From assembly GCA_021851715.1 (NCBI GenBank), contig JAJZCR010000005.1, positions 2,329 to 66,328 of the forward strand: a DNA stretch of 64,000 nucleotides, given 5' to 3'. Position 1 is the first letter of the stretch. Every line of letters begins with the position of its first letter. Below the pieces are notes generated by a model that ran no database searches, was not told the DNA's origin, and saw only the letters and a program-made list of their open reading frames with translations. Positions 2,306 through 28,843 of the stretch are shown here, in pieces. Made by a program: the position numbers and the translations under genes. Origin of the DNA: Planctomycetota bacterium (GTDB lineage Bacteria > Planctomycetota > Phycisphaerae > WQYP01).

Positions 2306-5300
2306 ATGGCCCGCAATTCCAATCCAGCAACGACCGGGCAGATACCCGATGATTTGCGTGAATCGCTGCAAGGCGTGGCGAAGCGCCATCGCACGGTGCG
2401 TAGCAGCCTGGCGGCGTTGCGGGTGCTCTTCGTGAGTTTGGCGGTCGGCTTGGTTGCGGTTCTCCTGCTGGGGGAATTTACGCAAATGCCCTTGACGCTG
2501 CGCTGGGTGCTGGCCCTGCTGGTGTGGGTGGTGCCGGCGGGGTTATGTCTGCATGTGCTTATTCCAGCGCTGCGGCGGGTGAACATGCAGGTGGCTGCAG
2601 ATACCATGGATGCGATAAGGCCGCAGTCTCATGAGCTTTTTCTGAGTGCCGTAGAATTTGCTCAAAAACGACAGGACCCATTCGTGGGATCGCCGCAACT
2701 GGTCAACCACGTTATTAACCGGGCGGCCGATGATGCGCACGCTGTGGATCCTGGGCAAGCGGTTTCCGCGGATAAATTGATACGCTGGGCCTTTCTCTGT
2801 GCCCCGCTGGTGCTGATCTGGGCCATCCTTTGGCCACTGATGCCGCAAACATTAACCTTGGGCGTGCAAAGGACGGTGTTCCCCTGGATGGTGGCTACCG
2901 CACCGCCAATGACTGGGCCGCGGCATTCGATCAAGGTGGAACAAGGGCCGGCCATTACTTTCTTCGAGAAGCGGTATATTTTTCCAGCGTATACCGGGCT
3001 ACCGGAGAAAACTGTTCGTGGCCACAACGGAGCGATCCACGGGCTGTCCGGTTCACGTGTCCAGGTGATTATCCATACCACCGAGCCGTTGGCAGTAGGC
3101 AGCCGGCTGGTGGTAAACCCAAGTGGAGGTCAACCGGACACGCTGCCGCTGACGCGTTATGGTCCGCTGGCGTATGCGGCGAAGCTGATGTTGACGCACA
3201 ACGCCACTTATGCGGCAGTGCTGGTGAATCAACTTGGCGTCCAAATGGCCGGGAAGCAGGTGTGGCCGGTGACGGTAGATGCGGTTCCGCCGCCGACGAT
3301 CCATATTCTCACCCCCGCTTTAACCGTGCGGGTAAGGCCTGATGATTTGGTGCCGGTGCAATTCATCGCCACCGACATCTATGGACTTTCGGCCATCCGG
3401 GCTTTGCTCTGGACAGGTAATTCTGCCGTACGAACCGTGAATATCGCCCTGCCGGGCACGCCAGGCAAGGTGATTCAAAGCAATTGGACAATTTCGGTGC
3501 CACAGCAACTGCAAGCTGCCGGCCGGACCGATGCCCACACGATTTATTATAAACTTGAGGCCTTGGATTGCGCCCAGCCACAGGCCCATATTGCCATGAC
3601 CGCCCGGCATGAGCTAATCGTGGATACCCACTTGCAGCACAGCTATCAAACCCGGCAGGATAACAAATTATGGATGTCGTTGCGGCAAGCAATTTTGCAG
3701 GCGTTAATCGCGGTAAAAGCGGGCCGTGCCCAGGCCCGGGCTTTAGTCCGCTGGCCCGCATACATGGCGGTTGATCCGTTACGCAAGGCGGCGGTGGCCG
3801 GTGTGGCGGTGCGAGTGGTGCGGACGGGTCGAACGCTGGCAAACCAGGCCAAGACCATGTTGGAGACTGATTTTGGTGCGGTAGCAGCGCGTGCTATTGG
3901 CATTGCCCACGGTCCGATGCACGTGGCCGCCAATGATCTGGCGCGAACCGGGCTGGCGGCGGATCAAGCCGGGGGCACCCGCATGCCTCGATTGGCCCGG
4001 GCCAGCACGGTGGCACTCCAGCGGACACAAGCGTCACTGCGACGGCTGCTGCACGCCCTGGACCAAGCCAAGACTCGTGAGGCTTTGAAAAATTTACTAA
4101 CCCGGTTGGCCCGGCGACAGCGTTCCATCGCCCAGAGGCTATTGGACGGCAGTTCCCCTCACCATGCTTACCACGACCAGCAGGCCCTGGCCCAACAATT
4201 GCAGCAACTGCTGCGGCAACATCCCTCACTGCAGAATCCCGTCGCGCAGCAAATGACGGGACAAATCAACCAGTTAGCCAAAAAAATAGCTTCCATTGCC
4301 GCCCGGCAGGCGGCAGAGGATATGGATTTACATCCCAATCTTCTTCGACAAGCCCAGCAGACTGCGTTGGGGCATCTGGCCAACCAGCAGCAACTTTTGA
4401 ACCGACAAATAACACGTTTCAACCAACGCTATAAACCGGCGATTGCCACAGCGGCAGCGCAGCCGGTTACCGCAGCGATGATGCAAACCGTAAGTCACGC
4501 TCTGAACAGCCCCGGCGATGCCGCCGTGGCCCGGGAAGGGCGCAACAACATCGTGAAAACCCTGCGGTCTATGGCCAGGCAATTAGACCGGTATGCCAGT
4601 CAGGCGGATACGCCTGCGGCCAGGCAACAGTCCCGTCAAGTGGAGCATAATCAAGTAACCGCGGATCAACTTTCGCGACAGGTTCAGGCCGCCGCAGCCA
4701 CTCTACAACAAGGAGAATCAACAAACGCTCTGCATCGCGCTGTGCGGGCAGCGGATGCCATTGGGCGGCAGGTGCGTAACATGCTCAATGAAAACCCTGT
4801 GGACCAGGAGCGGGCTGATTTGCTGCAAGCCCGGGCCGATGCCAGGCATGCTGTAGAACAAACCATGCATGGATCCGGCAATGCCGCGGAGAGTTTATTA
4901 AAACAGGCTTATCACCAATTGGCGAAGGCCATACGGGAACAGGTAGCGCAGCTCGAATCGCAGCGGAGTTTGGCTCAGCAGGCAACCGCGGCAGCCATGC
5001 AGGCCCGAACCCTGGCTAGTCGGCAGGCCGCCCTGGCCACACAGACGGCCAAGGCCCATAAAACACCGACTCCGCAGGCGATCTCAAGCGCCCAGCACCA
5101 AACCGCCAATGCCATTGCAGAGGCCATTGCCCGGGAACGGAAATTACAACAGGAGGCCATGGCCGGTGCCCCGAATGTGGCCCAGCACCTGAAAGCAGCT
5201 CTGACCCAAATGCAGAGAGCCAACACGGCACAGGCTCAGGCAGCCGCGGACCAATCCGCCCATGATCAGGCAGGCTCGCAGGCCAATCAAGGCCGGGCCT

Positions 5301-5968
5301 TGGCCCAGATGCGTATGGCCGGCCGGGAAATTGCGGCGTTGGAGCATTTCGGGAGGATGAATACTTCCTCGCAACGCCCGGCCGGAGCGGATGGCAGCAA
5401 AGCCGGCAATTGGGCGGCCAGACCAACCGAGTCCTCTCAAGCAGGCCCACCAGGGGCGAACAGTTCATCCGCCGATGCCGGTCAAAGCCGTGCCAGCCAG
5501 GCATCTTTGGGCACCATGGCTGCGGTAGCCAGACACGTACAGGCTGCAGTGGCAAGCCAGCAACAGGCGCTCACCGGCAGTGCCGGAGCCGCAGCTTCAG
5601 CGGCGCAATCGCTGACGATGGCCTCGGCGACGTTGGCGGGTGCACTGGCCGGCCAGCCATCGGCCATGCCGAACAGCCATGGTGGAAATCCAGGAGCCGG
5701 CAGCGCCGAGCCCTCTGCCGGCCAACCGGGCAGTGAAGGAACGGGCATCTCCGGACCAATGCCGGACACTTGGGCCGTACCCCCGCAGGTAACAGCATTG
5801 GGCATCAGTCCGGCGGAATGGGAACACCTTGGACCGCTGCAACAACTGCGACTGCTGAATATTGCCAGGCAAAAGCTGCCGTCCGGCTATCGCCGAATTA
5901 TTCGCGATTATTATTTGCGCATCGCCGCCTTGCCTCCATCATCGCACCCTCATGGGAAAGAAAATTAA
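2306..5968 (+). CDS. Giant membrane-anchored Gln/Ala-rich protein (DUF4175-like architecture, unverified)
   Basis: 1220-aa ORF with a TATAAT at 2258-2263 upstream. N-terminal TM helices (LFVSLAVGLVAVLLL, WVLALLVWVVPAGLCLHVLI, WAFLCAPLVLIWAILW). A Q/A-rich low-complexity or coiled-coil core of about 600 aa, then a P/G/S-rich linker, then the tail 'LPSGYRRIIRDYYLRIA'. Confidence 0.6.
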   Translation: MARNSNPATTGQIPDDLRESLQGVAKRHRTVRSSLAALRVLFVSLAVGLVAVLLLGEFTQMPLTLRWVLALLVWVVPAGLCLHVLIPALRRVNMQVAADTMDAIRPQSHELFLSAVEFAQKRQDPFVGSPQLVNHVINRAADDAHAVDPGQAVSADKLIRWAFLCAPLVLIWAILWPLMPQTLTLGVQRTVFPWMVATAPPMTGPRHSIKVEQGPAITFFEKRYIFPAYTGLPEKTVRGHNGAIHGLSGSRVQVIIHTTEPLAVGSRLVVNPSGGQPDTLPLTRYGPLAYAAKLMLTHNATYAAVLVNQLGVQMAGKQVWPVTVDAVPPPTIHILTPALTVRVRPDDLVPVQFIATDIYGLSAIRALLWTGNSAVRTVNIALPGTPGKVIQSNWTISVPQQLQAAGRTDAHTIYYKLEALDCAQPQAHIAMTARHELIVDTHLQHSYQTRQDNKLWMSLRQAILQALIAVKAGRAQARALVRWPAYMAVDPLRKAAVAGVAVRVVRTGRTLANQAKTMLETDFGAVAARAIGIAHGPMHVAANDLARTGLAADQAGGTRMPRLARASTVALQRTQASLRRLLHALDQAKTREALKNLLTRLARRQRSIAQRLLDGSSPHHAYHDQQALAQQLQQLLRQHPSLQNPVAQQMTGQINQLAKKIASIAARQAAEDMDLHPNLLRQAQQTALGHLANQQQLLNRQITRFNQRYKPAIATAAAQPVTAAMMQTVSHALNSPGDAAVAREGRNNIVKTLRSMARQLDRYASQADTPAARQQSRQVEHNQVTADQLSRQVQAAAATLQQGESTNALHRAVRAADAIGRQVRNMLNENPVDQERADLLQARADARHAVEQTMHGSGNAAESLLKQAYHQLAKAIREQVAQLESQRSLAQQATAAAMQARTLASRQAALATQTAKAHKTPTPQAISSAQHQTANAIAEAIARERKLQQEAMAGAPNVAQHLKAALTQMQRANTAQAQAAADQSAHDQAGSQANQGRALAQMRMAGREIAALEHFGRMNTSSQRPAGADGSKAGNWAARPTESSQAGPPGANSSSADAGQSRASQASLGTMAAVARHVQAAVASQQQALTGSAGAAASAAQSLTMASATLAGALAGQPSAMPNSHGGNPGAGSAEPSAGQPGSEGTGISGPMPDTWAVPPQVTALGISPAEWEHLGPLQQLRLLNIARQKLPSGYRRIIRDYYLRIAALPPSSHPHGKEN

Positions 5969-7708: not shown

Positions 7709-8536
7709 TTATTTTTTGTCCGCATAAAATGTATTGTAAAACAGCGCGTGATTGTTTTTTATCCACAGCGCCAAGTCCGTCCCCAATATCTGATTATAGT
7801 CCAACGGCACCGGTTCAATCTTGGAGCGAATATTATGATCTCCATATTGGGTATGATAGGCATCATTTTCCTTGGTGGACTGTTCAATATGGTTAAAATC
7901 GTGCTGGAAATAGGGTTCTTCCAGATAAGCGTATACGCGGCGAAGAACCTCTTCCGGATGAGTGGTTAAATCTTCAAACCGTACCACATGCATGGTTTTA
8001 ATAACGCCGGTCTGAATGGATTCGACCAGTCGGGCCACGGCAATGCCCACGGGCGGTCCGTTGAGCCAGCGCATGACGCGGTTGTTGATGGTAACCATGG
8101 TAAGTGTACCGGTTACTTCATCGGCATCGGAGAAGTGGCGTTTTTTTCGGAAGAGTTTTTCCATGGAGGCAAGAATGGCCCGGAGATCGCGGATACAGAC
8201 CAGATACTTGGGATTGGGATGAAATTGGTTGACCCACTCATGGAAGTGAAACCAACTGCGGCATTTGTCCACGCAGACGGGTTTATCGGTAACACCGTCA
8301 AAAAAACCGTTGAGGCCGTATTTGCAATAGCTGATGAAAGCTTTATGCATAAGCTCCGGATCCTGGGCTTTGAATTCCGCCAATTCTGTATAAAACTTGC
8401 GGGATGCCAGTAATAAATCAATAACTCCACTGGTGGGGGTACAGTAAAAGCGCGGATTCTGGGCGAGAATGTTTTGCAGCAATGTGGACCCGGATCGCGG
8501 TAAAGAAGCGTTGAAAACAATCTTTTTGTCGAACAT
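7709..8536 (-). CDS. PAPS-dependent sulfotransferase family protein
   Basis: 5'-PSB motif 'LPRSGSTLLQNIL' right after the N-terminus. I moved the start to the ATG at 8534-8536, which is preceded by GGAGAA (track start 8788). Confidence 0.75.
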   Translation of the reverse strand: MFDKKIVFNASLPRSGSTLLQNILAQNPRFYCTPTSGVIDLLLASRKFYTELAEFKAQDPELMHKAFISYCKYGLNGFFDGVTDKPVCVDKCRSWFHFHEWVNQFHPNPKYLVCIRDLRAILASMEKLFRKKRHFSDADEVTGTLTMVTINNRVMRWLNGPPVGIAVARLVESIQTGVIKTMHVVRFEDLTTHPEEVLRRVYAYLEEPYFQHDFNHIEQSTKENDAYHTQYGDHNIRSKIEPVPLDYNQILGTDLALWIKNNHALFYNTFYADKK

Positions 8537-8843
8537 CAAGGTTCTCCTGCCGGACCTGCGAAAAATGTCTACCTCGCGTCCTGATGCGCATCGAAAAATT
8601 CTCCGCAGACATCTTGGAACAACCGTAGTATAACCCACGGGCGATTTTTTTTCATCTGTGCCGGCCGGGTAAACGGGGAAAGCCGTCCTCGTGGCGCTGG
8701 TGTATGGCTGCACCCGGGGCCGGTATCTCGCATCCGGACCGACGTTGAGTATACTTAGGCAGAACTCGGTGGCGGCCGATTCGGTCACCAGGCGGGTTTG
8801 TTGGAACGGGTGACGCTTGTTTCACCCTCTGATTGAGGTATGC

Positions 8844-10196
8844 ATGCGACGTGTTGTCATTACCGGACTGGGAGCGGTTTCTCCGTTTGGGTTGTCGGCG
8901 GAAAATTTGTGGCAGGGTTTAATTTCCGGTAAATCCGGTGTGGGTCCCTTGACCAGCTTTAATGCCGCGAGCTTTCCCAGCCGCATTGCCGGCATCGTGC
9001 CGCCGTTTAAAACCATCGATTATGTGCCCAAAAGTTACCGCAAGGCCACCAAAATCATGGCCCGCGATATTGAACTTGCGGTCATTGCCGCTGATGGAGC
9101 GGTGCGCAGCGCCCGCCTGGCCACACGGGGCATGATTGAAACATTTGGCGGCCCCCAGTCTTTGCCAGCAGGATGGAAAATGGTGGATCCAACCCGTGTC
9201 GGTTGCAACATCGGAGCGGGATTGATCTGTGCGGACCTCAATGAGATGACCAGCGCTTTGGTCAAGGCTCGCAATCCGGACTTGAGTCTGAACCTCGCTG
9301 CCTGGGGCCATCCGGCGGAGCCGGGAAAAACCAGCGGTATGGAAAATCTTACTCCGCTGTGGCTGCTGAAATATCTACCGAATATGCTGGCTTGTCATGT
9401 CAGCATCATTCACGATACCCAGGGCCCCTCCAACACCGTTACCTGCGGCCAGGCTTCCGCAGGCCTGGCTTTGATGGAAGCCTGCCGCACTATTCAGCGT
9501 GGCAACGCAGATGTGGCCCTGGTGGGCGGATGCGAATCTGTAACACATCCGGTGGGTCTTATGCGGTGGTCGCTGCTGAACCGGTTGACCACCACCGGCA
9601 ATGACAATCCGGCACATGCGTGCAAACCTCTGGATAAGGCCGCCTCGGGAACCGTCATTGGCGAAGGCGGCGCGGTATTGGTGATTGAAGAATTAGAATT
9701 GGCCCGGGCCCGGGGAGCTGTTATTTACGCCGAGATCACAGGATTGGGAGCTTCGGCCACGGGCCAGCCGGTAGGTCAATGCGATTCCACTGGTGAATCC
9801 ATGGCTTACGCCATGAAAAAAGCTTTAGGCGAGGCCGCAATCAGCCCTGATGACGTACACATGATTATACCGCCCGGTTATGGAATTCCAGCCGCCGACG
9901 CCGCCGACATCAAGGCCATTCATCATGTTTTTTCTTCCCGCTCGAAGCCGTGGGTGGTGGCGATGCGGGGTGCCACCGGAGATTGCGGTGCCGGCTCTCA
10001 GGCACTGGATATTGTCGCCGCGGCCATGGCATTGCATCAGCAGACCGTACCGCCCGGCATTAACACGCTCAATCCGCTTGACGGCATCAACGTGCCGCAT
10101 ACCCCCCAGACAGGAACTCCATTGCATCACGTGCTGGTGGCGGCGAGTTCCATGGCCGGACAAAATTCAGTCGTGGTGCTGAAAAAATATGTGTAA
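8844..10196 (+). CDS. Beta-ketoacyl synthase-like protein, non-condensing chain-length-factor type (Gln at nucleophile position, both catalytic His lost)
   Basis: KAS N-terminus 'MRRVVITGLGAVSPFG', with GAGG 7 nt upstream of the ATG at 8844. The active-site region is 'VTCGQASAGLALMEACRTIQRGNAD'. 'MIIPPGYGIP' replaces NAHGT and 'AMRGATGDCGAG' replaces KSMTGH. Confidence 0.75.
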   Translation: MRRVVITGLGAVSPFGLSAENLWQGLISGKSGVGPLTSFNAASFPSRIAGIVPPFKTIDYVPKSYRKATKIMARDIELAVIAADGAVRSARLATRGMIETFGGPQSLPAGWKMVDPTRVGCNIGAGLICADLNEMTSALVKARNPDLSLNLAAWGHPAEPGKTSGMENLTPLWLLKYLPNMLACHVSIIHDTQGPSNTVTCGQASAGLALMEACRTIQRGNADVALVGGCESVTHPVGLMRWSLLNRLTTTGNDNPAHACKPLDKAASGTVIGEGGAVLVIEELELARARGAVIYAEITGLGASATGQPVGQCDSTGESMAYAMKKALGEAAISPDDVHMIIPPGYGIPAADAADIKAIHHVFSSRSKPWVVAMRGATGDCGAGSQALDIVAAAMALHQQTVPPGINTLNPLDGINVPHTPQTGTPLHHVLVAASSMAGQNSVVVLKKYV

Positions 10197-10245
10197 ATGA
10201 CCGCAGTGCGGCGTGCCGGATATGCGGCGTATCGGAGTAACATCA

Positions 10246-11556
10246 ATGCGTAACAGAGTGGTAATCACGGGAATGGGTTGGGTAACACCTCTCGGGCAGA
10301 CCCTGCAGGACGTATGGCAACGCTTAACCTCCGGCGAAAGCGGCATTGCGCCCATCACATTGTTCGATGCCCGCACCTTCCCCACAACATTTGCCGCGGA
10401 AGTCAAAAACTTTCAATTACCGGAGCGCTTTGTCCGCTCGGGCCGACACCGGGAAATCAGCCGGGCCACCGGTTTTTCGCTGGAAGCGGCCCGGCAGGCA
10501 TGGATGCAGGCTGGCCTGCCGGAGGCGGATTCCCCCGCAGCCGATATTGATCCGTATCAGGTGGGGATTTATCTGGGCAGCGGCGATGCGGCGCTGGATT
10601 TTGTGCCATTTACCGACACCGCCATTTCCAGTTGGAATGATGCCACCTCTTGCCTGGATACCACAAAATGGGGCACGCGAGCCTTGGGCGTCTTTAACGC
10701 CCTGCGCGAAATTGAGCAGGAGCCTTGCATGCCCGCCAACCATCTAAGTATGGAATTTAACGCCCGCGGCCCCGCGTTTAACTGCCTGACGGCCTGTGCG
10801 GCTTCCACGCAGGCGCTGGGCGAAGCAGCGGAAATTATCCGTCGCGGTGACGCCCAGGTGATGATTTCCGGAGGCGCTCATTCCATGATCCATCCCTTCG
10901 GTGTCACCGGTTTTAACCGACTCACCGCCCTTTCCACTCTGAACGACAATCCATCGCGGGCCTGCCGGCCGTTTGACGCCACGCGCGGTGGCTTTGTAAT
11001 TGGCGAAGGTGCCGGAATGTTGATTCTCGAATCGCTGGATCATGCCCGGACAAGAGGAGCCGGCATTCTGGCGGAAATTGTCGGTTACGGCAGTTCAGCC
11101 GATGCATACCGTGTTACCGATCAACACCCCGAGGGCCGCGGTGCGGTAGTGGCAATTCGCGAAGCCCTGCGTGACGCGGGTATGAAGCCTGAGGATATTG
11201 ATTACATCAATGCTCATGGTACCGGCACCAAAGAAAATGATTCCACGGAAACCCAGGCCATTAAAACGGTTTTTGGCCCATACGCCAGGCAAGTCCCCAT
11301 CAGCAGCATTAAAAGCATGATGGGCCATCTGATTGCCGCCGCCGGCGCTGTGGAAGCTATTACCTGCGTGCTGGCGATTCGTGATGGAGTGCTTCCCCCA
11401 ACCGCCAACTACGCCGTGCCCGATCCGGAATGTGACTTGGATTACGTACCCAATAAGGCGCGGCCCGCCAAAGTGGATGTGGCCATGTCCAACAGCTTCG
11501 GCTTTGGCGGCCAAAATGACACCCTGATTGTCCGGCGCTTTGTCAATTCGTCCTGA
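10246..11556 (+). CDS. Beta-ketoacyl-ACP synthase II-like (FabF family), catalytic triad intact
   Basis: Motifs 'MRNRVVITGMGWVTPLG', Cys in 'CLTACAASTQALGEA', 'YINAHGTGTKEND' and 'KSMMGHLIAAAGAVE'. Start set at the ATG at 10246 after GGAG. Confidence 0.85.
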   Translation: MRNRVVITGMGWVTPLGQTLQDVWQRLTSGESGIAPITLFDARTFPTTFAAEVKNFQLPERFVRSGRHREISRATGFSLEAARQAWMQAGLPEADSPAADIDPYQVGIYLGSGDAALDFVPFTDTAISSWNDATSCLDTTKWGTRALGVFNALREIEQEPCMPANHLSMEFNARGPAFNCLTACAASTQALGEAAEIIRRGDAQVMISGGAHSMIHPFGVTGFNRLTALSTLNDNPSRACRPFDATRGGFVIGEGAGMLILESLDHARTRGAGILAEIVGYGSSADAYRVTDQHPEGRGAVVAIREALRDAGMKPEDIDYINAHGTGTKENDSTETQAIKTVFGPYARQVPISSIKSMMGHLIAAAGAVEAITCVLAIRDGVLPPTANYAVPDPECDLDYVPNKARPAKVDVAMSNSFGFGGQNDTLIVRRFVNSS

Positions 11557-11584
11557 CGAAGAATTGGTGTTGAAAGGAGCATTT

Positions 11585-12754
11585 ATGCGCATCGCGTCTG
11601 CCATTTGTGTCGGCGATCAACCGGCGGTACTCGCCGCAGAGCTGGCGCATCAATTGCAGTCCCAGTTCCAGGGTGCCCCCGTGGATCTCGTGGTGGCTTT
11701 TGCTACCATCCAGTTGGCTCAGGCATTTCCGGAAGTTCTGTCCACGTTGCAGGGACAACTCGCCGCGCGCACTCTCCTGGCATGCACCGCCGAAAGCGTA
11801 CTGGGAGTGGATCGTGAAATTGAGCGGTCGGCCGCAGTCTCCGCTCTGGCGATGTCATTGCCCGGCATTACCGTCAAAACTTTTCATCTGGCGGAGGACG
11901 AATGGGCGGACATTCTCGGCGATAACCGGGTGCTGCGGACGCGGCTGGAACTGCCAACGGACCTGCGATTATTTGTGGTTCTTGGCGATCCCTTCACCAC
12001 GCCGGTGGTACAACTGCTGGATGCCTGTTCGGATGAATTTCCAGCGGCACCGGTGGTCGGCGGCATGGCCAGCGGCATCACCCAGCCCGGTCAGACACGT
12101 CTGACCATCAATGGGAATATATATTCGTCCGGTCTCGTCGGTGTGGGCCTGGCGGGTCCGTTGCAGGTCGATTGCGTCGTGTCGCAGGGTTGCCGGCCGG
12201 TGGGCCACACCATGGTGATCACGCGTGCCCATCAGAATGTGATCGAGCATCTGGATGGAATCCCGGCCATTGCCGCCATCGGGCGGATGCTGGAGGACCT
12301 GCCGCGGAAAGATCGCGAGATGATTGAAAAAGTGGGTCTGCAGATCGGCCGGGCCATTGACGAACGCAAAGGCAACTTCGGCCGCGGGGATTTTCTCATT
12401 CGCAATATCCTGAATTTGGATCGCCAGCAGGGGCATTTGACCATAGGGGATATGATCCATGAAAAGCAGACGGTGCAATTTCAGGTTCAGGATTCCCGCA
12501 GTGCCGATGAGGATCTTCGCCTCCTGCTGCAGGGAGAATTGCTGTTGGCCAACGCCCCGACCGGAGCCTTGATGTTCACCTGCAGTGGTCGCGGAACCCA
12601 TTTGTTCGGCGCACCGCATCATGACATCAGCACGGTGCGCAGTGTCTTGGGATCGGTGCCCGTTGCCGGCTTCTTTTGCGCCGGAGAACTCGGGCCGGTG
12701 GGCGGCCGGAATTTTATCCACGGGCAGACGGTGAGCCTGGCCCTGTTTCGCTAA
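11585..12754 (+). CDS. FIST (N and C) domain sensory protein
   Basis: 390 aa, soluble. The 'VDLVVAFAT..', '..FVVLGDPF..', '..VVGGMASG..' and '..GFFCAGELGP' pattern is typical of FIST_N/FIST_C. ATG at 11585 after AAAGGAG. Confidence 0.65.
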   Translation: MRIASAICVGDQPAVLAAELAHQLQSQFQGAPVDLVVAFATIQLAQAFPEVLSTLQGQLAARTLLACTAESVLGVDREIERSAAVSALAMSLPGITVKTFHLAEDEWADILGDNRVLRTRLELPTDLRLFVVLGDPFTTPVVQLLDACSDEFPAAPVVGGMASGITQPGQTRLTINGNIYSSGLVGVGLAGPLQVDCVVSQGCRPVGHTMVITRAHQNVIEHLDGIPAIAAIGRMLEDLPRKDREMIEKVGLQIGRAIDERKGNFGRGDFLIRNILNLDRQQGHLTIGDMIHEKQTVQFQVQDSRSADEDLRLLLQGELLLANAPTGALMFTCSGRGTHLFGAPHHDISTVRSVLGSVPVAGFFCAGELGPVGGRNFIHGQTVSLALFR

Positions 12755-12797
12755 GCCCGCCCAGCCGGATCTCCGTGCCCCATGAAAGCAACACACG

Positions 12798-13391
12798 ATG
12801 CGTAACTTTGTGACGATACCCGCCGAAATCGAAATAAAATTAAGGGTGGATGATTTTACCGCCGTCCGGGCAGCATTGGTGTCCGCGGGTGCCCAGGCCC
12901 TGGGAACAGATCGCGAACTTAACATATTTTTTGATCGGCCGGATAAAAGTCTGCGCGCCGACGGTGCGGGCTTACGGCTTCGCTGGCTATGGCACAATCA
13001 GGCCGTGGAACCGCAGGCACTGTTGACTTGGAAGGGACAGGCGGTATCCAGCGCCATGCACCATCGCCCTTCTCTGGATATCAGCGTTGCCCCACCTCAG
13101 CAGATGGCCGCCCTGCTGGAGATGCTGGGATTTGCACAAACGTTGGCCTTTGAAAAACTTCGCGAATCCTGGCGGCTGGAGACGAGCCGCATTGAACTGG
13201 ATCAATTACCCGAACTGGGCAACTTTGTCGAAATTGAAGGGCCGACGGAAGCCGCGGTCCTGGCAATGCAAAAGCGATTAGACTTGTTCGGCCGGCCGAT
13301 AGAGACACACACGTATATCGCCCTGGTGGAACGGCATTTGCACGACCACCCTGCCGACGATAACACCCTGCGATTCAAGCGCGGCGGATGA
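12798..13391 (+). CDS. CYTH-domain protein (class IV adenylate cyclase / triphosphate tunnel metalloenzyme family)
   Basis: N-terminal ExExK signature 'AEIEIKLRV', followed by 'LRADGAGLRLRW' and 'FVEIEGP'. Confidence 0.75.
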   Translation: MRNFVTIPAEIEIKLRVDDFTAVRAALVSAGAQALGTDRELNIFFDRPDKSLRADGAGLRLRWLWHNQAVEPQALLTWKGQAVSSAMHHRPSLDISVAPPQQMAALLEMLGFAQTLAFEKLRESWRLETSRIELDQLPELGNFVEIEGPTEAAVLAMQKRLDLFGRPIETHTYIALVERHLHDHPADDNTLRFKRGG

Positions 13392-13438
13392 AGCGCCGAA
13401 CCTCGCCGCCGGATAATAGAAGACGAAAACACGGATTA

Positions 13439-13546
13439 GAGCGGTTCTCAAAAGTCTTGTTGCAGGTGTGGTATATATTCGTACATCAGGAACAACACAT
13501 CACCTTAAAACATGCGACATTATTGATGAGAACTGCTCTAAACACG
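13439..13546 (+). repeat. Copy A of a hairpin-forming intergenic element of about 107 nt (partner at 48057-48163, inverted)
   Basis: The reverse complement of 13439-13546 matches 48057-48163 with 5 mismatches in about 107 nt. It has terminal inverted arms GAGCGGTTCTCA / TGAGAACTGCTC and is AT-richer than its flanks. It sits 48 nt after the CYTH stop and overlaps the last codons of the convergent CBS gene. Confidence 0.85.
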
Positions 13547-13975
13547 TCCGTACACGTATTCATGCAGATAGCGGATGGTAATCTCCTGTTCGCTGGTGTG
13601 CTGAGCGTTCAGGTCACCGATGGAGACCATCCCCAGCAATCCCCCATCCGGGTCGCATACCGGCAGGTGCCGGACGCGATGGGTTTTCATAATGGTGCTG
13701 GCTTCCTGCAGCGAGGTATCCAGATCGCAAAAGATCACGTCGCGGGTCATCACCTCTCCGACAGTGGTCTGATGAGGATTTTTATCCGCGGCGACCACAC
13801 GCTGGAGGATGTCACGCTCGGTGAGAATGCCGACAATATGCTCGGACTCCATCACCAGCAACGCCCCGATTTTGTAACGGTTCATCCGCTGGGTGGCGGC
13901 GAGGACACTGTCCGTGGGCATAACGGAATGCACGATGCGCGGCTTACCCGCAAGGATGTGAGAAAGTGTGGACAT
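13538..13975 (-). CDS. CBS-pair domain protein
   Basis: 145 aa with two CBS motifs ('IGALLVMESEHIVGILTERDIL' and 'VRHLPVCDPDGGLLGMVSIGDL'). Confidence 0.85.
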   Translation of the reverse strand: MSTLSHILAGKPRIVHSVMPTDSVLAATQRMNRYKIGALLVMESEHIVGILTERDILQRVVAADKNPHQTTVGEVMTRDVIFCDLDTSLQEASTIMKTHRVRHLPVCDPDGGLLGMVSIGDLNAQHTSEQEITIRYLHEYVYGRV

Positions 13976-14127
13976 GGCTGTACTCCTTCAAAGAGGCCAC
14001 TAAAATTTCCGGCATCAGAATTGGATAGCGACGCCAATGTTCTTGAGTGTAGACTTTTATAACAGATATGCAACATTGTGAATAAAATAACGAATAAGGC
14101 GGCCCTTGCTTATGCTCGCTGCTCTCA

Positions 14128-15123
14128 TCACTTGCTCTGACAGAAGCTGATCGCTGCCGTGAGGGATTCCGGATTAGCCAAAATGGTGCCAAACCCGCGC
14201 GGCAGGGGTCGGCAGCCGGTGTAGTGGTCAATGAGGTGTCGGCCACACCAGCTCAGAACCACATTTTGCCAGGATGCTACGGGATTTGGTGCCAGCGACG
14301 CATAAGCCTCCAGCAATGCCTGGGCTTCATCGCGTGCCACCATGCCATCCGGCCTTATGCACCAGTGAACAAAGGCATCCACCACATCTTGGGCGGGATG
14401 GCCAGTCTGGCAGAGGCCCCAATCCACCACATTGGCGATTTGCCGGTCGGCATCCAGCAAAATGGCCTCGGGCGATATGCCGCCATGGGCTAAACCGGCG
14501 TTATCAACAGCTCGGTTTTCCAGCATTTGCAGCAGCAAGTCCACATGCACCCGAGATGGTGCCGGAAAATCTCGCGGATGACGCAGGGGCGATGCGCATG
14601 ACCAATGGCGAATTTGCTCGCTCAAGGATGGCTGGTTGGTTGCCATGGGCATCTCGGCTAAAAGCCGGTGCAGCCAGGCAAGGCGCAAGCCCAGGTGGCT
14701 TAAATCCTGAGCCGTCCAGCGCTCCAGGGAAAGATGTTGCCCGACGGCAATTTCCGTCAAAACTAGGTGCGAACCTTGCGGGCCATCGACCACGAAGCAT
14801 GGGCCAGATGAAGTCATGGGGATGGATGCTTCCAGTCGCGGGGCTGGAAAACCCCGGCGGGACGCCACATCCAGTACAGACATGGCGTGTTGCAGCCATG
14901 GAAGACGATATTCAGGTGGAAACAACTGCAGCAGGTATTCCCGCTGTCCGGCGGTAAGAATTTCAAAACAGGTTGCCTGTCGCCCACGCTGCAGGTGGCG
15001 AAAACGAATGACACGGCCAATGGAATAGTGTCGTTCCAACAGAGCGTTAAAAGCGTAGGCCGTGCGGTCTTCCATTCCAAGATTGTTCCATCCATGATCC
15101 CGGGATGCAAGCGCAGCGGTCAA
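14128..15123 (-). CDS. Aminoglycoside/homoserine-kinase-type phosphotransferase (APH family)
   Basis: Catalytic loop 'LAHGGISPEAILLD' and 'VVDWGLCQTGHPAQDVVD' (Brenner / DxG-like motifs of the APH fold). Confidence 0.7.
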   Translation of the reverse strand: MTAALASRDHGWNNLGMEDRTAYAFNALLERHYSIGRVIRFRHLQRGRQATCFEILTAGQREYLLQLFPPEYRLPWLQHAMSVLDVASRRGFPAPRLEASIPMTSSGPCFVVDGPQGSHLVLTEIAVGQHLSLERWTAQDLSHLGLRLAWLHRLLAEMPMATNQPSLSEQIRHWSCASPLRHPRDFPAPSRVHVDLLLQMLENRAVDNAGLAHGGISPEAILLDADRQIANVVDWGLCQTGHPAQDVVDAFVHWCIRPDGMVARDEAQALLEAYASLAPNPVASWQNVVLSWCGRHLIDHYTGCRPLPRGFGTILANPESLTAAISFCQSK

Positions 15124-15628: not shown

Positions 15629-16903
15629 ATGTTGGACGGGTCGGTAAAACCCTTGGATTACTGTGGATCTTCGCCGGCGACGGCTCCGGATGATTCAGGC
15701 ATTACCTCTGGAGCAGGATCTTCGCGCGCCGGGATTGCCGGTTTAGCCAGCCCGGAACACCTGCGACTGTGGGCGGCCGACGCATCACGGCAGCAGCGCA
15801 CCCCGGGCTCGTACGAATGGTGGTATTTTGACGCTGTGGATGCCGTCGGCAACGGCGCTGTCATCTGCCTATTCGATGGTTTTTGCTTTCATCCGCGGTA
15901 TCTGGCGGAAGTTCGACGGTACCATCGGCGTATGAGAGCCCATGATCTTTCCGCTATTCGCGAAGAGGTGCTGGCATCGCATTATCCGGCGGCGTATGTA
16001 TCGGCCTATCAGGGTGGCCGCTGTGTGGCACGCTTCGTCAACATGTATCCACCGGATTCGTTCCGTGGCTCAACTGATTCTCCGGAACTTCAAGTGGGAC
16101 CGAATCGCGTAACCTTGCGGCACGATAATTCACTGGGCATTGTGGCCCGCGGTTATCCTACCCATCGTACCACGGGCGGGGTGCAACACCGCCGGGACCA
16201 TTGCATTCTCGTTGATTTTAATTTCAACCCCACTTTTAAGGGGGTGGAGCATATCGGCCCGTTTCGTCCGGATGGGGCCGATGGAGCACATCACATGTGG
16301 GTGATCAGTACGCCGCACGCCAAAGTCACCGGCCGTGTACAACATGTGGATCAACGCAACGGTGTAACCATCTTTGATATTCCGATTAATGCCCTCGGCT
16401 ACCATGATCATAATTTCGGCGGATCGGGCATTGCCCGTGACATCAAGCGTATCACACGCGGACGGGCGTTGGGAAATGACTATTCGATCGTGTGGAACCA
16501 TGCACTGACCGCGGAAAACCTGCCCGCCACCACCAATTCCCTGATATTTTTTCAGGCTGCCGCCGAGCCGATTGTCATCATGAATCCAAAAACGGAAGTG
16601 CGCCAAAGCCGGATTTCTCCATCGCTGGTGCGGTATCCCACCATGCTGACCATGCACGGCAGTGATACCCATGGTAATTCGGCGGAATTAGTGGTCACGC
16701 TGCGAAACCTGATGGAAACCACTCCATACAGTGTCCGGACCACCTGTTCGGCGGAACTTCGCATTTTAGGGCGCAAGCAGGTACGTGGTGAGGGAATCAT
16801 GGAAACTTCCTCGGTGCACAGCCTGAACTGGCCAATTTTGAGCGATGCCGCCTTCCGCACCATTCGCCCCATTGATCGTGACGATCCGCTCTGGCGGCAG
16901 TAG
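15629..16903 (+). CDS. CrtC-like hydratase (hydroxyneurosporene synthase / carotenoid 1,2-hydratase family)
   Basis: 'PGSYEWWYFDAVDAVGNGAVICLFDGFCFHPRY' resembles the N-terminal CrtC signature (GGYxWWYxDAxSDDG..F.GSVFSPYY). The true start is uncertain. Confidence 0.55.
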   Translation: MLDGSVKPLDYCGSSPATAPDDSGITSGAGSSRAGIAGLASPEHLRLWAADASRQQRTPGSYEWWYFDAVDAVGNGAVICLFDGFCFHPRYLAEVRRYHRRMRAHDLSAIREEVLASHYPAAYVSAYQGGRCVARFVNMYPPDSFRGSTDSPELQVGPNRVTLRHDNSLGIVARGYPTHRTTGGVQHRRDHCILVDFNFNPTFKGVEHIGPFRPDGADGAHHMWVISTPHAKVTGRVQHVDQRNGVTIFDIPINALGYHDHNFGGSGIARDIKRITRGRALGNDYSIVWNHALTAENLPATTNSLIFFQAAAEPIVIMNPKTEVRQSRISPSLVRYPTMLTMHGSDTHGNSAELVVTLRNLMETTPYSVRTTCSAELRILGRKQVRGEGIMETSSVHSLNWPILSDAAFRTIRPIDRDDPLWRQ

Positions 16904-21780: not shown

Positions 21781-24021
21781 TTACGCCCCCGGCAGACGTT
21801 TTTCCGCCGATACAGTCGACGTAGCGACCGTTTGTCCGGCCGCGTATTCAAAGAACGTACGGTAATTCTGGCGGAAATAACCGGAACCCCAGGCTTGGGC
21901 TGCATTAAGCACAATCCCCAGGAAATTAGCATTCACTTGCCGCAGTTGATCCTGAATACGGGAAACGGTTCCGCGTGTTACCACCCCGGCCCTTAAGACG
22001 GCAATCACACCATCCACACGCGATGCCAGATTAACCGAGTCGGAAACAAACGTCAGTGGTGCGCCGTCAAAAATCACTACGTCGTAGCGGGATTCAAGAT
22101 CGGTAAGCACCTCATGGAAACCGCGGTGCTCACTGAGTTCGCGCGGTACCTTCACGGCAGTACCAGCCCCCATCAGGTGCAGATTAGGCAGATCCGGATG
22201 GGCCACAATCACTTGGTCCATGCTGGCCTGTTTGTTTAACAGATCAGTCAAGCCCAGGGCGGACAGGTTCGGATAAATCGTTCTTAGAATGGGACGGTAG
22301 AAGTTCACCTCCACCAGAAGCACACGCAAGTCACTTAGCGCCATGCCATTGGCCAAGTTACTGGCCACAGTACTGGCTCCGCCGCCCGGCGAAAAGCTTG
22401 CTACCAAGATGCTGCGCAAGGGTTGTCCCGGTGAAACTGCCGCCAGCCTCCCGCGAATTTGGCGGAAGGCTTCGGCCGTCATGGATGCCGGCGATGTCCG
22501 AACGCTGGTCATTGGATTTCCGCTTAAAAGCGTATCGTCGGCATGATCCGGCACAAACCCCAACATTGGCATGTGCAGCAAGGCAGTGATGTCTCTTGGG
22601 GTGCGCACACGGGTATTGGTAAACTCCACCAGATACGCCAGCCCCACGGAAAGCGCCACCCCAATCACCATACCCACAATTAAAAAGTGCGGCAGAATTG
22701 GGAAAGAACGCTTATTCGGAACCGCAGCCACTTCAAACAGCCGCACACGCGAAGCATCGGCGGAGCGGCGCAAGTTCATGATGGTGGCTTTCTGGGTCAG
22801 CGTATCGAGCAGCTTTTGCTGATTGTGCAAAGTCTGAAGCATATTCTGGTACTTGGCCACGGCCGCATCCAAGTCGCCGACCAACCGCTGTTCCACATCG
22901 CGGCGACGCCGGGTATCCACTTCCGTGGCCTGGGCGTCGAGCATCTCGGCTTTGGCATGCTCCAGCATCTGCAGCCGGGCATGCACCTCCAATTTGCTTT
23001 TGACGCGCTGAATCTGTCCTTCCATGGTCGCAATCTGAATCTGCAGCACCACGGTCGAACGGTTATTGGGACCAAGTGTCATCTTGGAAACTTGGTACTG
23101 CTGCTTGAGATTTAAGAGCGAAGACTGCAGTGCAGAAAGCTTGGGATCGGTGTCGATGGTTTGTTCCATCTTCGGACTGAGCTTAAGTGTGTTGTTTTTG
23201 ACCTGTTCGCGAATGCCTTCGTAATCCTGCTTGAGCTGGCTGGCGGAGATTTCTGACCGGATCAGCAGGGCGTTGAGCGCCGCGAGAGTTTCCGCCTGCA
23301 CCGAATGTTGATCCACTAAGCCCGGAATATCGTGAGCAACCCGATAGGTTTCCACATTTTGCTGCATGGACGTAACTTGGGCCTGCACTTTCTGCTGGGC
23401 CCGGGTGATCAACTGCGCCTGTTCCGAAAGGGTTTGCTTTTCCTGATTCTGCAGCACCTGCAAATAGACTGACCCAATCGCGTGAACTAATTGGGCAACT
23501 TCATTCCGATCGTGCCAGGATATGGAAATAGCAAATAGCGCCGACCTTCTGATGGGCTCAACGCTCACATCCCTTTCCAAATCCTGCACCGGATGAGCCG
23601 GATGACTTTCCAACCAGTCGCTCTTCATCGCCAAGTTGTTGGGATAGCGATAATTCTGCTGAAAAGCACTAGTCTGGATCGCCGGCCCCAGCACCGCCGG
23701 ACTATGTATTAATACCGCCTGCCGGTTGATAAACTGTGTCACTTCCGCGTTAACGATGGCATTGGCGGATCCGAAAGCCTGTGCCAGCGGACTGTTGTTG
23801 GATGGCAATACCTGAAAATATTCCTTCGCTGTATACCGGGAATCATACTTGTCAAATGCCAGAAACAGCCCAAAGCTTATCACCAGGCCCAATGCCGTCC
23901 CGATGACAATAAGCCAGCGGTGACGTTTAAGCACATAGCCTATTTTGGGTGTGGAACTGCTCGGCGGAGGCGCAAAATCCATGGGTGCCGGTGGTATCGC
24001 CAAGGCCGTTGATTGACTCAT
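21781..24021 (-). CDS. Wzz/GumC chain-length determinant fused to a degenerate BY-kinase-like domain (Wzc/EpsG-like polysaccharide co-polymerase)
   Basis: Two TM helices flank a long coiled-coil periplasmic domain. The C-terminal P-loop region reads 'SFSPGGGASTVASNLA' (no Lys). Walker A' is 'VLLVEVNFYRP', Walker B is 'YDVVIFDGAP', and the tail is the Tyr-containing 'GYFRQNYRTFFEY'. Confidence 0.8.
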   Translation of the reverse strand: MSQSTALAIPPAPMDFAPPPSSSTPKIGYVLKRHRWLIVIGTALGLVISFGLFLAFDKYDSRYTAKEYFQVLPSNNSPLAQAFGSANAIVNAEVTQFINRQAVLIHSPAVLGPAIQTSAFQQNYRYPNNLAMKSDWLESHPAHPVQDLERDVSVEPIRRSALFAISISWHDRNEVAQLVHAIGSVYLQVLQNQEKQTLSEQAQLITRAQQKVQAQVTSMQQNVETYRVAHDIPGLVDQHSVQAETLAALNALLIRSEISASQLKQDYEGIREQVKNNTLKLSPKMEQTIDTDPKLSALQSSLLNLKQQYQVSKMTLGPNNRSTVVLQIQIATMEGQIQRVKSKLEVHARLQMLEHAKAEMLDAQATEVDTRRRRDVEQRLVGDLDAAVAKYQNMLQTLHNQQKLLDTLTQKATIMNLRRSADASRVRLFEVAAVPNKRSFPILPHFLIVGMVIGVALSVGLAYLVEFTNTRVRTPRDITALLHMPMLGFVPDHADDTLLSGNPMTSVRTSPASMTAEAFRQIRGRLAAVSPGQPLRSILVASFSPGGGASTVASNLANGMALSDLRVLLVEVNFYRPILRTIYPNLSALGLTDLLNKQASMDQVIVAHPDLPNLHLMGAGTAVKVPRELSEHRGFHEVLTDLESRYDVVIFDGAPLTFVSDSVNLASRVDGVIAVLRAGVVTRGTVSRIQDQLRQVNANFLGIVLNAAQAWGSGYFRQNYRTFFEYAAGQTVATSTVSAEKRLPGA

Positions 24022-24105: not shown

Positions 24106-27100
24106 CTATCCATCCAATTTGCTTAACAACGCTTGAGCGCGTTTCAGCCCGCTTTGATGCTGTTGTTGTGCGTATTTTATCGCATCTTGCAAATATTTCT
24201 TCGCACCGGCTATGTTATTTTCCTTCACCAGCACGTTGGCCAAATGATAATAAGCGGTGGCCAAATGTCCATGCTTAACCGCCCGGGTAAGCGCTTTATA
24301 AGCCCCGGTGGTATCGCCGTTTAAGAACCGCACCCACCCCAGCGTATCAAGAATATTGGGATCGACGGCGTAGCTGACGCGATTCTCAGCGGCAGCGGCA
24401 ATCGCGTTGGCCCGTTCGATCAAAGGCATTGCCTCCAGGGCCTGGTTCAAATGAACCGCCAGCACATACGCCAGGTTATTCAGCGTATTGGCATCGGTAG
24501 GATCAAGTTTGAGAACCTGCTTATAGTACATGGCCGCAGTACGATAATCCTGCGCACCGTACGCCGCCACCGCGGCAATTCGCAAGGCCGTGATCTGCAC
24601 AAAACCGACAGGATTGGTGCCAAGCACTTGCTGCGCTTCGTGTAGCGCCCCGGCATGATTTCCCACCGCAAGCTGCGCCTGCGACAGGCTCAACATAAGC
24701 CCTGGATCATTTTTATGCGATGCCAGCAGATTTTTCAGCGACTGCTCCACCGCCGAAATACCGGCCACAGCCTTGTACTTATCACTCACGGCCAGCAGAG
24801 CCTCTGGTGATTTGATGGAAAGCTCTAAAGCGTGACTAAAATCAGCGCTGGCTTTGGGCACCTGGTGCATAGCCCCCAGGGCCATGCCGCGCACGGTATA
24901 AAGTCCGGGATTATTAGGATCCAGGGCAATAGCGACGGTCGCAACTTTTTCCGCACGCTGGTACGCCTTGGCCTGCATCAACAGCGTCAAATAGGCCGGT
25001 GTGGTTTGCAGGCTTTGGCCGGCCTTTTTATAAGCCGCAGTCGCCACCGCTACCGCCGTGGCGCGATCGCCGCGCATTAACGCCAGGTCCGCCCGCATCA
25101 ATTGCCAGTTAAATGAACTCGGAAATGCCCGAATGGAGTCATCCACCAGCCGCGAGAGCAGGCTCACCGGATCGATGGTTCTCAGAGTTCCGGCCAGGGT
25201 GCTTTGGTCCGTGCTGGGCGTGGCCATGTACATGTGGCTAAGGGCAAAAAGCAGGGTCGCATAATCCATCCGCACCTGGTTGTCGTGCGGATCAAGTTTC
25301 ACAATCGATTGATATTCATGCACCGCCTGTGCGTAATGTTTCGTGCGCTCCAGCAGCTTCGCCAGATTCACTCGAGCCGCCATATCACCGGGTGCCTTGG
25401 CTATCACCACCTGCAGATCGCTGATCGCCTGGGCCAGATCTCCCTGGGGCATCATCGAAAGCAAAACCGCCTGGTTGTACAGGGCTTGAATATCACCCGG
25501 ATTGGCCGCCAATGCCCGATCCACAGCCTTTTCTGCCAAGTCCAGCTTCTTTTCCATCAGGTATCCCAACGCCTCCAACGTCAGGCCCGCCTCATCATGC
25601 GGATTTTTCACAAGAATTTTGCTTTGCAGCAACGACAACCCATGCTTCACGTGCCCCGCGCGAATCAGCGTTTGAATGTATTCCAACAGCACCGGACGAC
25701 TCAGAGGTTTGGCTTTGTAAAGGGAAGTCAAATACTTTAAAGCCTGTTTATAGTGCCCCAGGGCGTTAAGCATGGCCGCCATCTGTGTTTGCACCCGGTA
25801 GATGCCGGCGGGTTGTTTGCGGGCTGCAGACGTATACATCTGCGCCGCTTGTGCATAGTCCCCGCGTGTGCGATAGAAATCTCCCATCATCAGGCGCCCC
25901 AGATAGGCCGTTTTGGCATCCGGACTTTCCGCCAGATGACTGAAAATGCTTTCCGCCGCTGCCGGCTTCTTATCCAACTCGTACAACTGCGCCAACCCCG
26001 TCGCCAACACCAGATTTTTCTGGTGCTGAGCGTAGGCCGCTTTCAGCATGGCAATGCCGGCGGAATACCGCTTCGCTCGACCGTACAGGAACGCCAATCT
26101 TTGTATGTTGTGCAGATCACCGGGATCACTTTTATACACGGCCAGCCGCCGACGAATAGCCGGCCCCACCGACCCGTAAAGATCCTGCAGGTCGCGCCGC
26201 CACTGCCGCAGTTGCGTATCCAAGGTGTTATAGACCAGCCCCTGGTCAATTAAACGCGAGGCTCGGGCAACGCTGTCCGGAGTCTGTTGACTCATATAGT
26301 ATTGCACCAGCGGCTTGAGCGCCGCCATGTCGTCGGGCTTTTGATGCAAAGCCAGTTTCAAGGCCGCGATACCGGCTTCGATGTTGCCGGATTTCAGCAA
26401 AGCAGCTCCGTAATAGGTACGCACCACGGCACTCTGCGGATTTAAAGCCAAGGCGGCCTTCAGCGTCTGGACCGCGCTGGCGACGTCACCTTCTCCCATT
26501 TCCAGGCGCCCGCGGTACAAGGCCCCTTTCACACCGTCCAGATTCAGCGAACCCGCCAGACCCGCCACATCGGAGGCCTTTTTATAATCTTTCTGCAGCA
26601 TCGCCAACTCAAACTCGCGCTCCACCACCGCCGTATCATGCGGGCTGATGGCCGCAGCAGCAGCCACGGCTACCCCCGCGTGCTTGACCTTGTTTTGCTG
26701 CAAATAGAAAGTGGCCAGCATCAAGTTCCGCTGCAACGCATCCGGCAGGGTCTTAATGGCCGCCAATTGCGCCGCCACGGCCGATTCTCCCGGCAGGCTG
26801 ATGGACGCCAGATCGCTGTCCACCGAACGCAGCTTCACCACCGGAGATTTCCCCGCGCGCAGCGCAGAATTAAGCAGCAGAAATTGCAAATTGTTCGGTA
26901 CCGCCTTCACGGCGGCGGCCACCAGGGCCTTGACTGCGGACACACGGTGTAATTTCATCAGTGCCACATAGGCGATAATAACCACGCGGCTGTCGCCGGG
27001 AGACTTTTTCACCCATGGTTTGACGATATGCCAGGCCCTTAAATAATCGCCCTGCCGCAATGCCACCCGGGCACGCAGTACCGACAGCGACAAATTGCCG

Positions 27101-28749: not shown

Positions 28750-28843
28750 CGATATCCTCTTTGATAGTTTTTCGGAAGTCCAGATTCACCGCATTGATGA
28801 TGTTCCCGGTCAGCCGGTACCCGATTTCAGATCGCCGGGCCAC

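Follow-up and report, generated by a model that had tools for sequence, protein, structure and literature searches.

In anammox bacteria, the FabF paralogs amxFabF2 and amxFabFmut are inactive singly, co-purify, and are active as a heterodimer that decarboxylates malonyl-acyl carrier protein (malonyl-ACP), giving acetoacetyl-ACP, and residues of amxFabFmut tune the chain-length preference (10.64898/2026.05.19.726425). The May 2026 preprint by Granatino et al. calls FabF/FabFmut the first chain-length factor (CLF) of a fatty-acid pathway and ties it to ladderane synthesis (10.64898/2026.05.19.726425). Here, we analyzed a pair of ketosynthase (KS) genes, open reading frame 1 (ORF1) and ORF2, in a stretch of 64,000 nucleotides from a Planctomycetota bacterium of the Phycisphaerae (GenBank assembly GCA_021851715.1, contig JAJZCR010000005.1, positions 2,329 to 66,328 of the forward strand), which is referred to as the window. 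The two proteins probably constitute an obligate heterodimeric condensing enzyme of the FabF type, made up of a pseudo-KS and a KS and belonging to a conserved five-gene cluster. Behind this reading lie the active-site states of both proteins, their conservation as a pair, the five-gene cluster, its division between two contigs in one assembly, and purifying selection.

8844-10196, + strand: ORF1 (KSmut), pseudo-ketosynthase, 450 aa, Pfam domains PF00109 and PF02801
10246-11556, + strand: ORF2, catalytic FabF-type ketosynthase, 436 aa, intact triad, passes the PRK07314 model

Comparison with described condensing enzymes

Like the anammox pair, ORF1 and ORF2 are FabF-fold proteins from Planctomycetota, with a triad-less paralog encoded directly upstream of an intact one, and in both cases the inactive subunit carries the more positive charge (mean net charge here, about -2 in the pseudo-KS versus about -14 in the KS). 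The residues themselves differ: the anammox mutant subunit combines Val or Thr with Asn, Glu, or Cys, whereas the ORF1 family combines Glu, Asp, or Gln with variable residues and Asn or Asp. Against a profile of the ORF1 family, canonical FabFs score 284 to 306 bits, compared with 187 and 223 bits for the chains of PDB entry 9s5h, an entry with two KS chains that may be the anammox complex. ORF1, ORF2, and the proteins of one divergent locus (L088, described below) also score canonical FabFs above both KS chains of this entry.

The pair likewise resembles the KS-alpha/CLF of type II polyketide synthases (PKSs; PDB 1tqy), in that an active KS is accompanied by a full-length KS-fold partner without a nucleophile, the position being occupied by Gln in the window's clade. 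Here, the Cys-less partner carries Gln203 and the intact KS gene lies 49 nt downstream. Unlike type II PKSs, ORF1 is nearest FabF in both sequence and predicted structure, Gln is not found throughout the family, and the genomic context is similar to that of fatty acid synthesis (FAS), with no cyclase or aromatase. The aryl-polyene systems with ApeO/ApeC and ApeI/ApeP also share features with the planctomycete genes, namely an FAS-like type II organization, a KS/CLF pair, a dedicated ACP, and two hotdog dehydratases (PMC8358021). Unlike in aryl-polyene clusters, no ketoreductase, thioesterase, acyltransferase, glycosyltransferase, or export genes are linked to the pair. Moreover, ORF1 is full length, whereas ApeC-type CLFs are truncated to about 250 aa. 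The pair belongs neither to the actinobacterial CLF clade nor to the Gln-type ketosynthase (KSQ) domains nor to the ApeC-type truncated CLFs. It is best read as an analog of the anammox heterodimer and of KS/CLF pairs, in which the KS/CLF principle would operate in an FAS-like setting.

Table 2 of Rattray et al. 2009 (PMC2649909) lists two FabF paralogs of Rhodopirellula baltica, RB3714 and RB4527, in which Cys163 is replaced by Asp or Glu and His333 by Asn. Judged by these listed residues, the same pattern is the commonest in the ORF1 family. Rattray et al. listed the deviant active sites without describing a partner, a cluster, or a function (PMC2649909). An earlier reading of the window made from its sequence only (hereafter the sequence-only reading) knew of no described system of such composition, a point overtaken by these paralogs (PMC2649909) and by the analogous anammox heterodimer (10.64898/2026.05.19.726425).

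ORF1 lacks the catalytic triad of FabF

ORF1 was aligned using HMMER with T. thermophilus FabF (1j3n), and E. coli FabF (2gfv and 9lpl). Gln203 of ORF1 (TCGQAS) aligns with the catalytic Cys and with the engineered Gln of FabF C163Q, while Pro344 (IIPPGYG) falls on His303 and Asp380 (TGDCG) on His340. The substitution of Gln, Pro, and Asp for Cys-His-His, as proposed in the sequence-only reading, is therefore borne out. That reading had also called for a check on the Cys two residues upstream of the Gln ("TC"). This residue, C201, was ruled out as the true nucleophile because it lies off the nucleophile column; the elbow position is Gln203, and the two His are not recovered. C201 is invariant in the ORF1 family alignment, and the nucleophile column is never Cys in 60 loci with orthologs of both ORF1 and ORF2. 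In these paired loci, the column holds Glu (28), Asp (21), Gln (10), or Ala (1), so that Gln is a feature of the window's clade alone and most orthologs have Glu or Asp. The column for the first His varies (Phe, His, Pro, Ser, Ala, or Thr), and that for the second is mainly Asn (39 of the 60) or Asp (10), while Lys or Arg is kept at the position of Lys335. With its triad absent and a score of 263 bits on TIGR03150 (fabF; cutoff 493.75), ORF1 is not a FabF.

The AlphaFold2 model of the ORF1 monomer has the FabF fold (predicted local distance difference test, 89.5; predicted template modeling score, 0.90), and ORF1 is full length, in keeping with the full KAS length given by the sequence-only reading, although the 451 residues stated there are 450 aa plus the stop. 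In a Foldseek comparison with the PDB, the closest structures were canonical FabFs (template modeling score, 0.91), E. coli FabF C163Q among them, not CLFs. Similarly, in an HMMER comparison with PDB sequences, ORF1 scored 186 bits with FabFs and 149 bits with the actinorhodin CLF (1tqy_B), and the profile of the ORF1 family ranked them in the same order. The sole low-confidence stretch of the model is the invariant PLWLLKY at residues 171 to 177, and the region equivalent to it is disordered in the anammox FabFmut homodimer (10.64898/2026.05.19.726425). The model would thus be consistent with a surface that becomes ordered only upon partner binding.

ORF1 is under purifying selection as strong as that on ORF2, with ratios of nonsynonymous to synonymous substitution rates of 0.108 and 0.090, respectively, against a close relative (L001; ORF1 identity, 90%). 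It diverges faster, however, the mean identity of orthologs to the window being 50% for ORF1 versus 65% for ORF2. A basic stretch at residues 61 to 75 is invariant in the ORF1 family, and the signature motifs VPKSYRKATKIMARD and PLWLLKYLPNMLACHV are kept phylum-wide. From 1.84 billion representatives, 47 stand-alone clusters at 50% identity were obtained, and all of them contain PLWLLKYLPNMLACHV and VPKxYRKxxKVMARD; the size of the family cannot be read from E-value counts because matches in the representative library are mixed with giant PKSs. The nucleophile position in these representative clusters can also be Thr, Asn, Gly, or even Cys.

ORF2 is an intact FabF-subfamily ketosynthase

ORF2 retains Cys184, His324, His361, Lys356, and the Phe420 gate, and all five are kept in 60 of 60 ORF2 orthologs; the sequence-only reading was right that Cys and both His are present. 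Its score on TIGR03150 is 483.1 bits, just under the cutoff of 493.75, and it passes the PRK07314 subfamily model with 466 bits (cutoff, 387). ORF2 is thus a KS of the FabF subfamily. ORF1 and ORF2 are 32% identical to each other and have in common an insertion of 15 to 22 aa with an L..(A/K)WG motif before the helix-loop-helix lid, relative to an E. coli FabF sequence that was mostly checked against printed alignment segments, the stretch flanking the insertion excepted. Its presence in both proteins suggests that the KS whose duplication gave rise to the pair was already modified.

The pair is a conserved unit in Planctomycetota

A scan of one genome per GTDB species yielded at least 592 ORF1-relative loci, and the best 80 were compared. 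All 80 are from Planctomycetota (Phycisphaerae, Tepidisphaerales, and Planctomycetales), and ORF1 homologs are abundant in metagenome-assembled genomes of Phycisphaerae. An ORF2 ortholog follows the ORF1 ortholog on the same strand in 64 of the 80 loci, with a median gap of 48 nt. The gap is 10 nt or less in 20 cases, and eight are 4-nt overlaps, which suggests translational coupling. The sequence-only reading had proposed a dedicated heterodimeric condensing enzyme; its core stands, in that a dead partner is encoded upstream of an intact KS and mostly next to it, while the heterodimer itself is a prediction. One locus of the Phycisphaerales (L007) has a third KS gene about 1 kb downstream of the pair (L007:8494-9759; 421 aa, 39% identical to ORF2) and keeps only the proximal dehydratase upstream of it.

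In many relatives, the pair belongs to a five-gene cluster with a long ACP

Directly upstream of the pair, 46 of the 80 loci carry a same-strand trio that encodes a FabZ-like dehydratase, a long ACP, and a second FabZ-like dehydratase, and at least the proximal dehydratase is present in 56. The ACP has 127 to 138 aa (about 130), with a PP-binding domain, an insertion of about 50 residues, and the serine motif GAESID in 50 of 50 sequences. Both dehydratases have a precomputed Pfam match to PF22818 (ApeI-like), and none of the five cluster proteins reaches an NCBIfam equivalog cutoff. When the neighboring ORFs of the 80 loci were clustered, FabZ-like proteins and ACP were the only recurrent families; one large neighbor "family" turned out to consist of antisense ORF artifacts. 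No cyclase, aromatase, or ketoreductase was found in any of the 80 loci.

The anammox system, too, includes a FabZ-type dehydratase and a dedicated ACP, which were here found in these 46 relatives and in L081 but not in the window. For the proximal FabZ-like protein, the five best PDB matches are anammox amxFabZ structures (8AYD, 8AYC, and 7QV0 among them), by a small margin. Unlike the anammox genes, the planctomycete cluster has two dehydratases and a long ACP, and it contains no phytoene-dehydrogenase homolog. Its occurrence in the non-anammox Phycisphaerae, Tepidisphaerales, and Planctomycetales argues that it is not ladderane-specific.

Cluster-type ACP and FabZ genes were absent from the 64-kb window by tblastn and by a hidden Markov model (HMM) search of its six-frame translation. 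Three ACP queries were used for tblastn, one of them E. coli AcpP, and the HMMs were built from 50 to 59 locus sequences; the only match was a weak one to an unrelated hotdog gene at 46.2 kb. The sequence-only reading had noted the lack of a nearby ACP, and this holds across the window. In L081, the complete cluster stands beside an ORF1 homolog that is 65% identical to ORF1 (P0019), which indicates that the orphan pair of the window's lineage is derived. Moreover, assembly GCA_964610975.1 contains an orphan pair on CAZSYN010000006.1 (L002) and the trio without KS genes on CAZSYN010000010.1 (L082). The idea that the pair borrows the housekeeping ACP thus finds no support, given the dedicated long ACP and two ApeI-like dehydratases of its relatives and this split within one assembly. 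Judging from these relatives, the ACP used by the window pair is probably a dedicated one whose gene lies elsewhere in the genome, not housekeeping AcpP.

Some loci show local variations. In L088:3102-8578 (JGI metagenome 3300033141), a B12-binding radical-SAM gene (437 aa) lies between the first ApeI-like dehydratase and the ACP, which is reminiscent of anammox Cluster I, and downstream of the cluster lie a hydrolase gene, a GH3-family gene, and two methyltransferase genes. The ORF1-family member of this locus has Asp at the nucleophile position and keeps both His, the Lys, and the Phe gate. In the Phycisphaerae loci L081 (3874-4200) and L082 (3042-3362), an ArsR/HTH_5-type regulator of 106 to 108 aa is encoded divergently upstream of the first dehydratase; the two regulators are 75% identical, and none was seen in the other loci. 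In a locus of the Phycisphaerales (L023:9072-9482), a gene for a 23S rRNA intervening-sequence protein (PF05635, four-helix bundle) is located between the ACP and the second dehydratase.

Proposed mechanism and function

We propose that ORF2 would provide the only working Cys-His-His site and carry out the decarboxylative Claisen condensation of malonyl-ACP with an acyl chain. ORF1 would be the pseudo-enzyme paralog resulting from duplication of a KS that already bore the insertion before the lid. Its half of the dimer interface and of the acyl tunnel would set the substrate or chain-length preference in the manner of a CLF, and it may also shape the ACP docking surface. The pair would represent the condensing half of the cluster, ordered as ApeI-like dehydratase, long ACP of about 130 aa, ApeI-like dehydratase, pseudo-KS, and KS. 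In the window's lineage, the pair would have been separated from the trio, which is expected elsewhere in the genome and would supply the dedicated carrier protein. Because the cluster has no ketoreductase, enoyl reductase, or malonyltransferase, these functions appear to be shared with housekeeping FAS; FabG, FabI, and FabD would provide ketoreduction, enoyl reduction (if it takes place), and malonyl transfer, respectively. The product would be an acyl chain that housekeeping FAS does not replace, and an unsaturated chain would result if enoyl reduction were skipped.

Transposon sequencing (Tn-seq) of Planctopirus limnophila identified as essential Plim_3120 (KS), Plim_3121 (FabA/Z), Plim_3122 (phosphopantetheine-binding), and Plim_3124 (FabA/Z) (PMC10632474). 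In addition, acpP (Plim_2565), fabD (Plim_2566), fabH (Plim_2221), and the KS paralog Plim_2564, which lies beside acpP and is presumably fabF, are essential in this organism (PMC10632474). By gene order, Plim_3120 to Plim_3124 is the apparent counterpart of the five-gene cluster. Should these genes prove orthologous, the pathway and housekeeping FAS are non-redundant, and FabH is not replaced; the possibility that the pair replaces FabH was dropped because fabH of P. limnophila is essential. Literature searches for Plim_3120, RB4527, and ApeI with Planctomycetota returned nothing specific.

Triad-less FabF partners with an intact KS thus span non-anammox Planctomycetota, usually in a compact five-gene cluster with an unusual ACP, which points to an uncharacterized, possibly essential lipid or cofactor pathway in the whole phylum. 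As a tentative extension, to which we give rather less than even weight, this may be a second acyl-ACP pathway across Planctomycetota, probably essential and not replaceable by housekeeping FAS, with anammox Cluster I as its specialized offshoot. If so, the "ladderane" Cluster I would not be an anammox invention. Tractable organisms such as P. limnophila open the way to studying how a pseudo-KS programs an FAS-type KS.

Several observations weigh against the proposed heterodimer and its place in the cluster. The window contains no ACP or dehydratase, and the link to the long ACP in its genome comes from relatives; likewise, the orthology of Plim_3120 to Plim_3124 comes from gene order and annotation. 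In 16 of the 80 loci no KS adjoins the pseudo-KS, and 11 of them have at least 4.7 kb of downstream sequence, so that adjacency of the pair is not obligatory. In 59 of the 60 paired loci, the nucleophile position has retained an acidic or amide residue (Glu, Asp, or Gln), which makes a residual, non-structural function possible. Furthermore, three of the 47 ORF1-family clusters (P0431, P0457, and P0486) keep the Cys, so that loss of activity is not family-wide, and P0431 (L087:2018-3307), alone on a 4.9-kb contig, has the full Cys-His-His-Lys-Phe set. Such Cys-keeping members with the signature motifs suggest that the ORF1 family descends from an active ketosynthase, and the three clusters could, from their sequences, be living examples of the active ancestor of the pseudo-KS.

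Alternative explanations

The best surviving alternative, which we nevertheless regard as improbable, is that the two proteins act separately, ORF2 as a homodimeric FabF paralog and ORF1 as a homodimer that binds or sequesters acyl-ACP, regulates, or performs other chemistry through its acidic or amide residue. The loci without an adjacent KS fit this explanation, as does the retention of Glu, Asp, or Gln in place of the nucleophile and of Lys or Arg at the position of Lys335; moreover, amxFabFmut of S. brodae crystallizes as a homodimer when expressed alone. However, the gene order is fixed, with translational coupling in many genomes, both proteins carry the common insertion in the interface region, their charges are asymmetric, and the anammox subunits are inactive alone. 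These features argue for a heterodimer.

In KSQ domains, and likewise in FAS proteins whose Cys has been mutated to Gln, a Gln at the nucleophile position increases decarboxylase activity. ORF1 might accordingly be a KSQ-type priming decarboxylase, in which Gln203 would make acetyl-ACP from malonyl-ACP for extension by ORF2, and both the presence of FabF C163Q among the best Foldseek matches and the decarboxylation of malonyl-ACP by the anammox heterodimer are compatible with such a role. A KSQ enzyme combines the Gln with both catalytic His, whereas in ORF1 the His that drive decarboxylation are replaced by Pro (on His303) and Asp (on His340). Gln is also confined to 10 of the 60 orthologs, and the anammox mutant subunit has Val or Thr, decarboxylation there being assigned to the heterodimer with the intact subunit. 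A KSQ-type role is thus unlikely from the active-site residues, and the evidence does not support Gln here as the hallmark of a CLF or KSQ that the sequence-only reading took it to be.

A further explanation, offered by the same reading, concerns the genes around the pair:

7709-8788, - strand: sulfotransferase, divergent from ORF1, 275 aa according to an independent gene caller
11585-12754, + strand: FIST_N/FIST_C protein (Pfam), 28 nt past ORF2, a lineage-specific neighbor
12798-13391, + strand: CYTH-domain protein (Pfam CYTH, 73 bits; EIEIK present), 43 nt past the FIST gene
13538-13975, - strand: CBS-pair gene, convergent with the CYTH gene
14128-15123, - strand: APH-family phosphotransferase, just past the CBS gene and not mentioned in the sequence-only reading

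Domain matches and coordinates agree with the earlier description of the FIST and CYTH genes and their spacing, the convergent CBS pair, and the divergent sulfotransferase. On NCBIfam, the CYTH protein scores 51 bits for cyaB, under the cutoff of 58. A 224-aa ORF at 13388-14062 (+) was rejected as an artifact, as it matches no family and runs antisense to the CBS gene, which it overlaps.

From this neighborhood, it was proposed that a KS/CLF borrows the housekeeping ACP and is coupled to FIST, CYTH, and the sulfotransferase to make a specialized, perhaps sulfated, lipid under small-molecule or nucleotide signaling. The four co-oriented genes (ORF1, ORF2, FIST, and CYTH) agree with independent gene calls on the source contig (ENA ERZ27237200, k141_385393, 179 kb) and are separated by 49, 28, and 43 nt; each + strand start has a plausible GAGG- or GGAG-type ribosome-binding site, no convincing terminator was found between the four, and all are under purifying selection. 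These features and the lack of an ACP in the window are what the proposal would lead one to expect. However, FIST, CYTH, sulfotransferase, and APH genes are found with the pair in L001 and in contigs identical to the window but nowhere else, and in the other 79 loci none occurs within 10 kb of it. In L002 to L006 (61-65% identity), the pair is followed by genes for a class-V aminotransferase, AAA proteins, transketolase, and phosphoglucose isomerase, and more generally the downstream genes of relatives at 56 to 65% identity are unrelated housekeeping genes. A dedicated ACP is present in relatives and in the genome with the same orphan arrangement. Of the gene order CLF-KS-FIST-CYTH, then, the pseudo-KS/KS part is conserved and the FIST-CYTH part is not: FIST and CYTH are local, lineage-specific neighbors outside the conserved unit. 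The proposed tie of the pair to FIST/CYTH signaling is thereby removed, and we consider the coupling very unlikely.

A classical type II (aromatic) PKS with a KS-alpha/KS-beta minimal PKS can be practically discounted, because, although a KS with a Gln-bearing partner and the significant score of the actinorhodin CLF would suit it, canonical FabFs score higher for both ORF1 and ORF2, the 80 loci lack cyclase, aromatase, and ketoreductase genes and have only FabZ-like and ACP genes as recurrent neighbors, and the pair is spread phylum-wide in variable housekeeping contexts.

Other loci in the window

A second, unrelated KS and pseudo-KS pair, which the sequence-only reading had not reported, lies in the region 43031-46642:

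43031-43807, - strand: truncated KS-like protein without the Cys, 258 aa, its start overlapped by 4 nt by the stop of the KS gene
43804-45012, - strand: KS, 402 aa, intact triad, best NCBIfam match PRK09185 (below cutoff)
45109-45996, + strand: PlsC-type acyltransferase, divergent from the second pair
46223-46642, + strand: hotdog FabZ-like protein, 139 aa, divergent from the second pair

This arrangement is similar to that of ApeO/ApeC, the acyltransferase, and the dehydratase in aryl-polyene-type clusters, but no ACP or ketoreductase was seen. A 314-aa ORF at 45070-46014 (-) was rejected as an antisense artifact.

In addition, the window contains a PEP-CTERM/exopolysaccharide-type locus (24106-32826), which also encodes a DUF3485 protein and a 1547-aa TPR protein:

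21781-24021, - strand: AAA_31 ATPase-domain protein, with the exosortase locus
29668-30675, - strand: exosortase (EpsH family)
31210-32826, - strand: polysaccharide export protein (Poly_export/SLBB)

Finally, two proteins of 1220 aa (2306-5968) and 424 aa (15629-16903) have no Pfam or NCBIfam match and are conserved in L001/L084.

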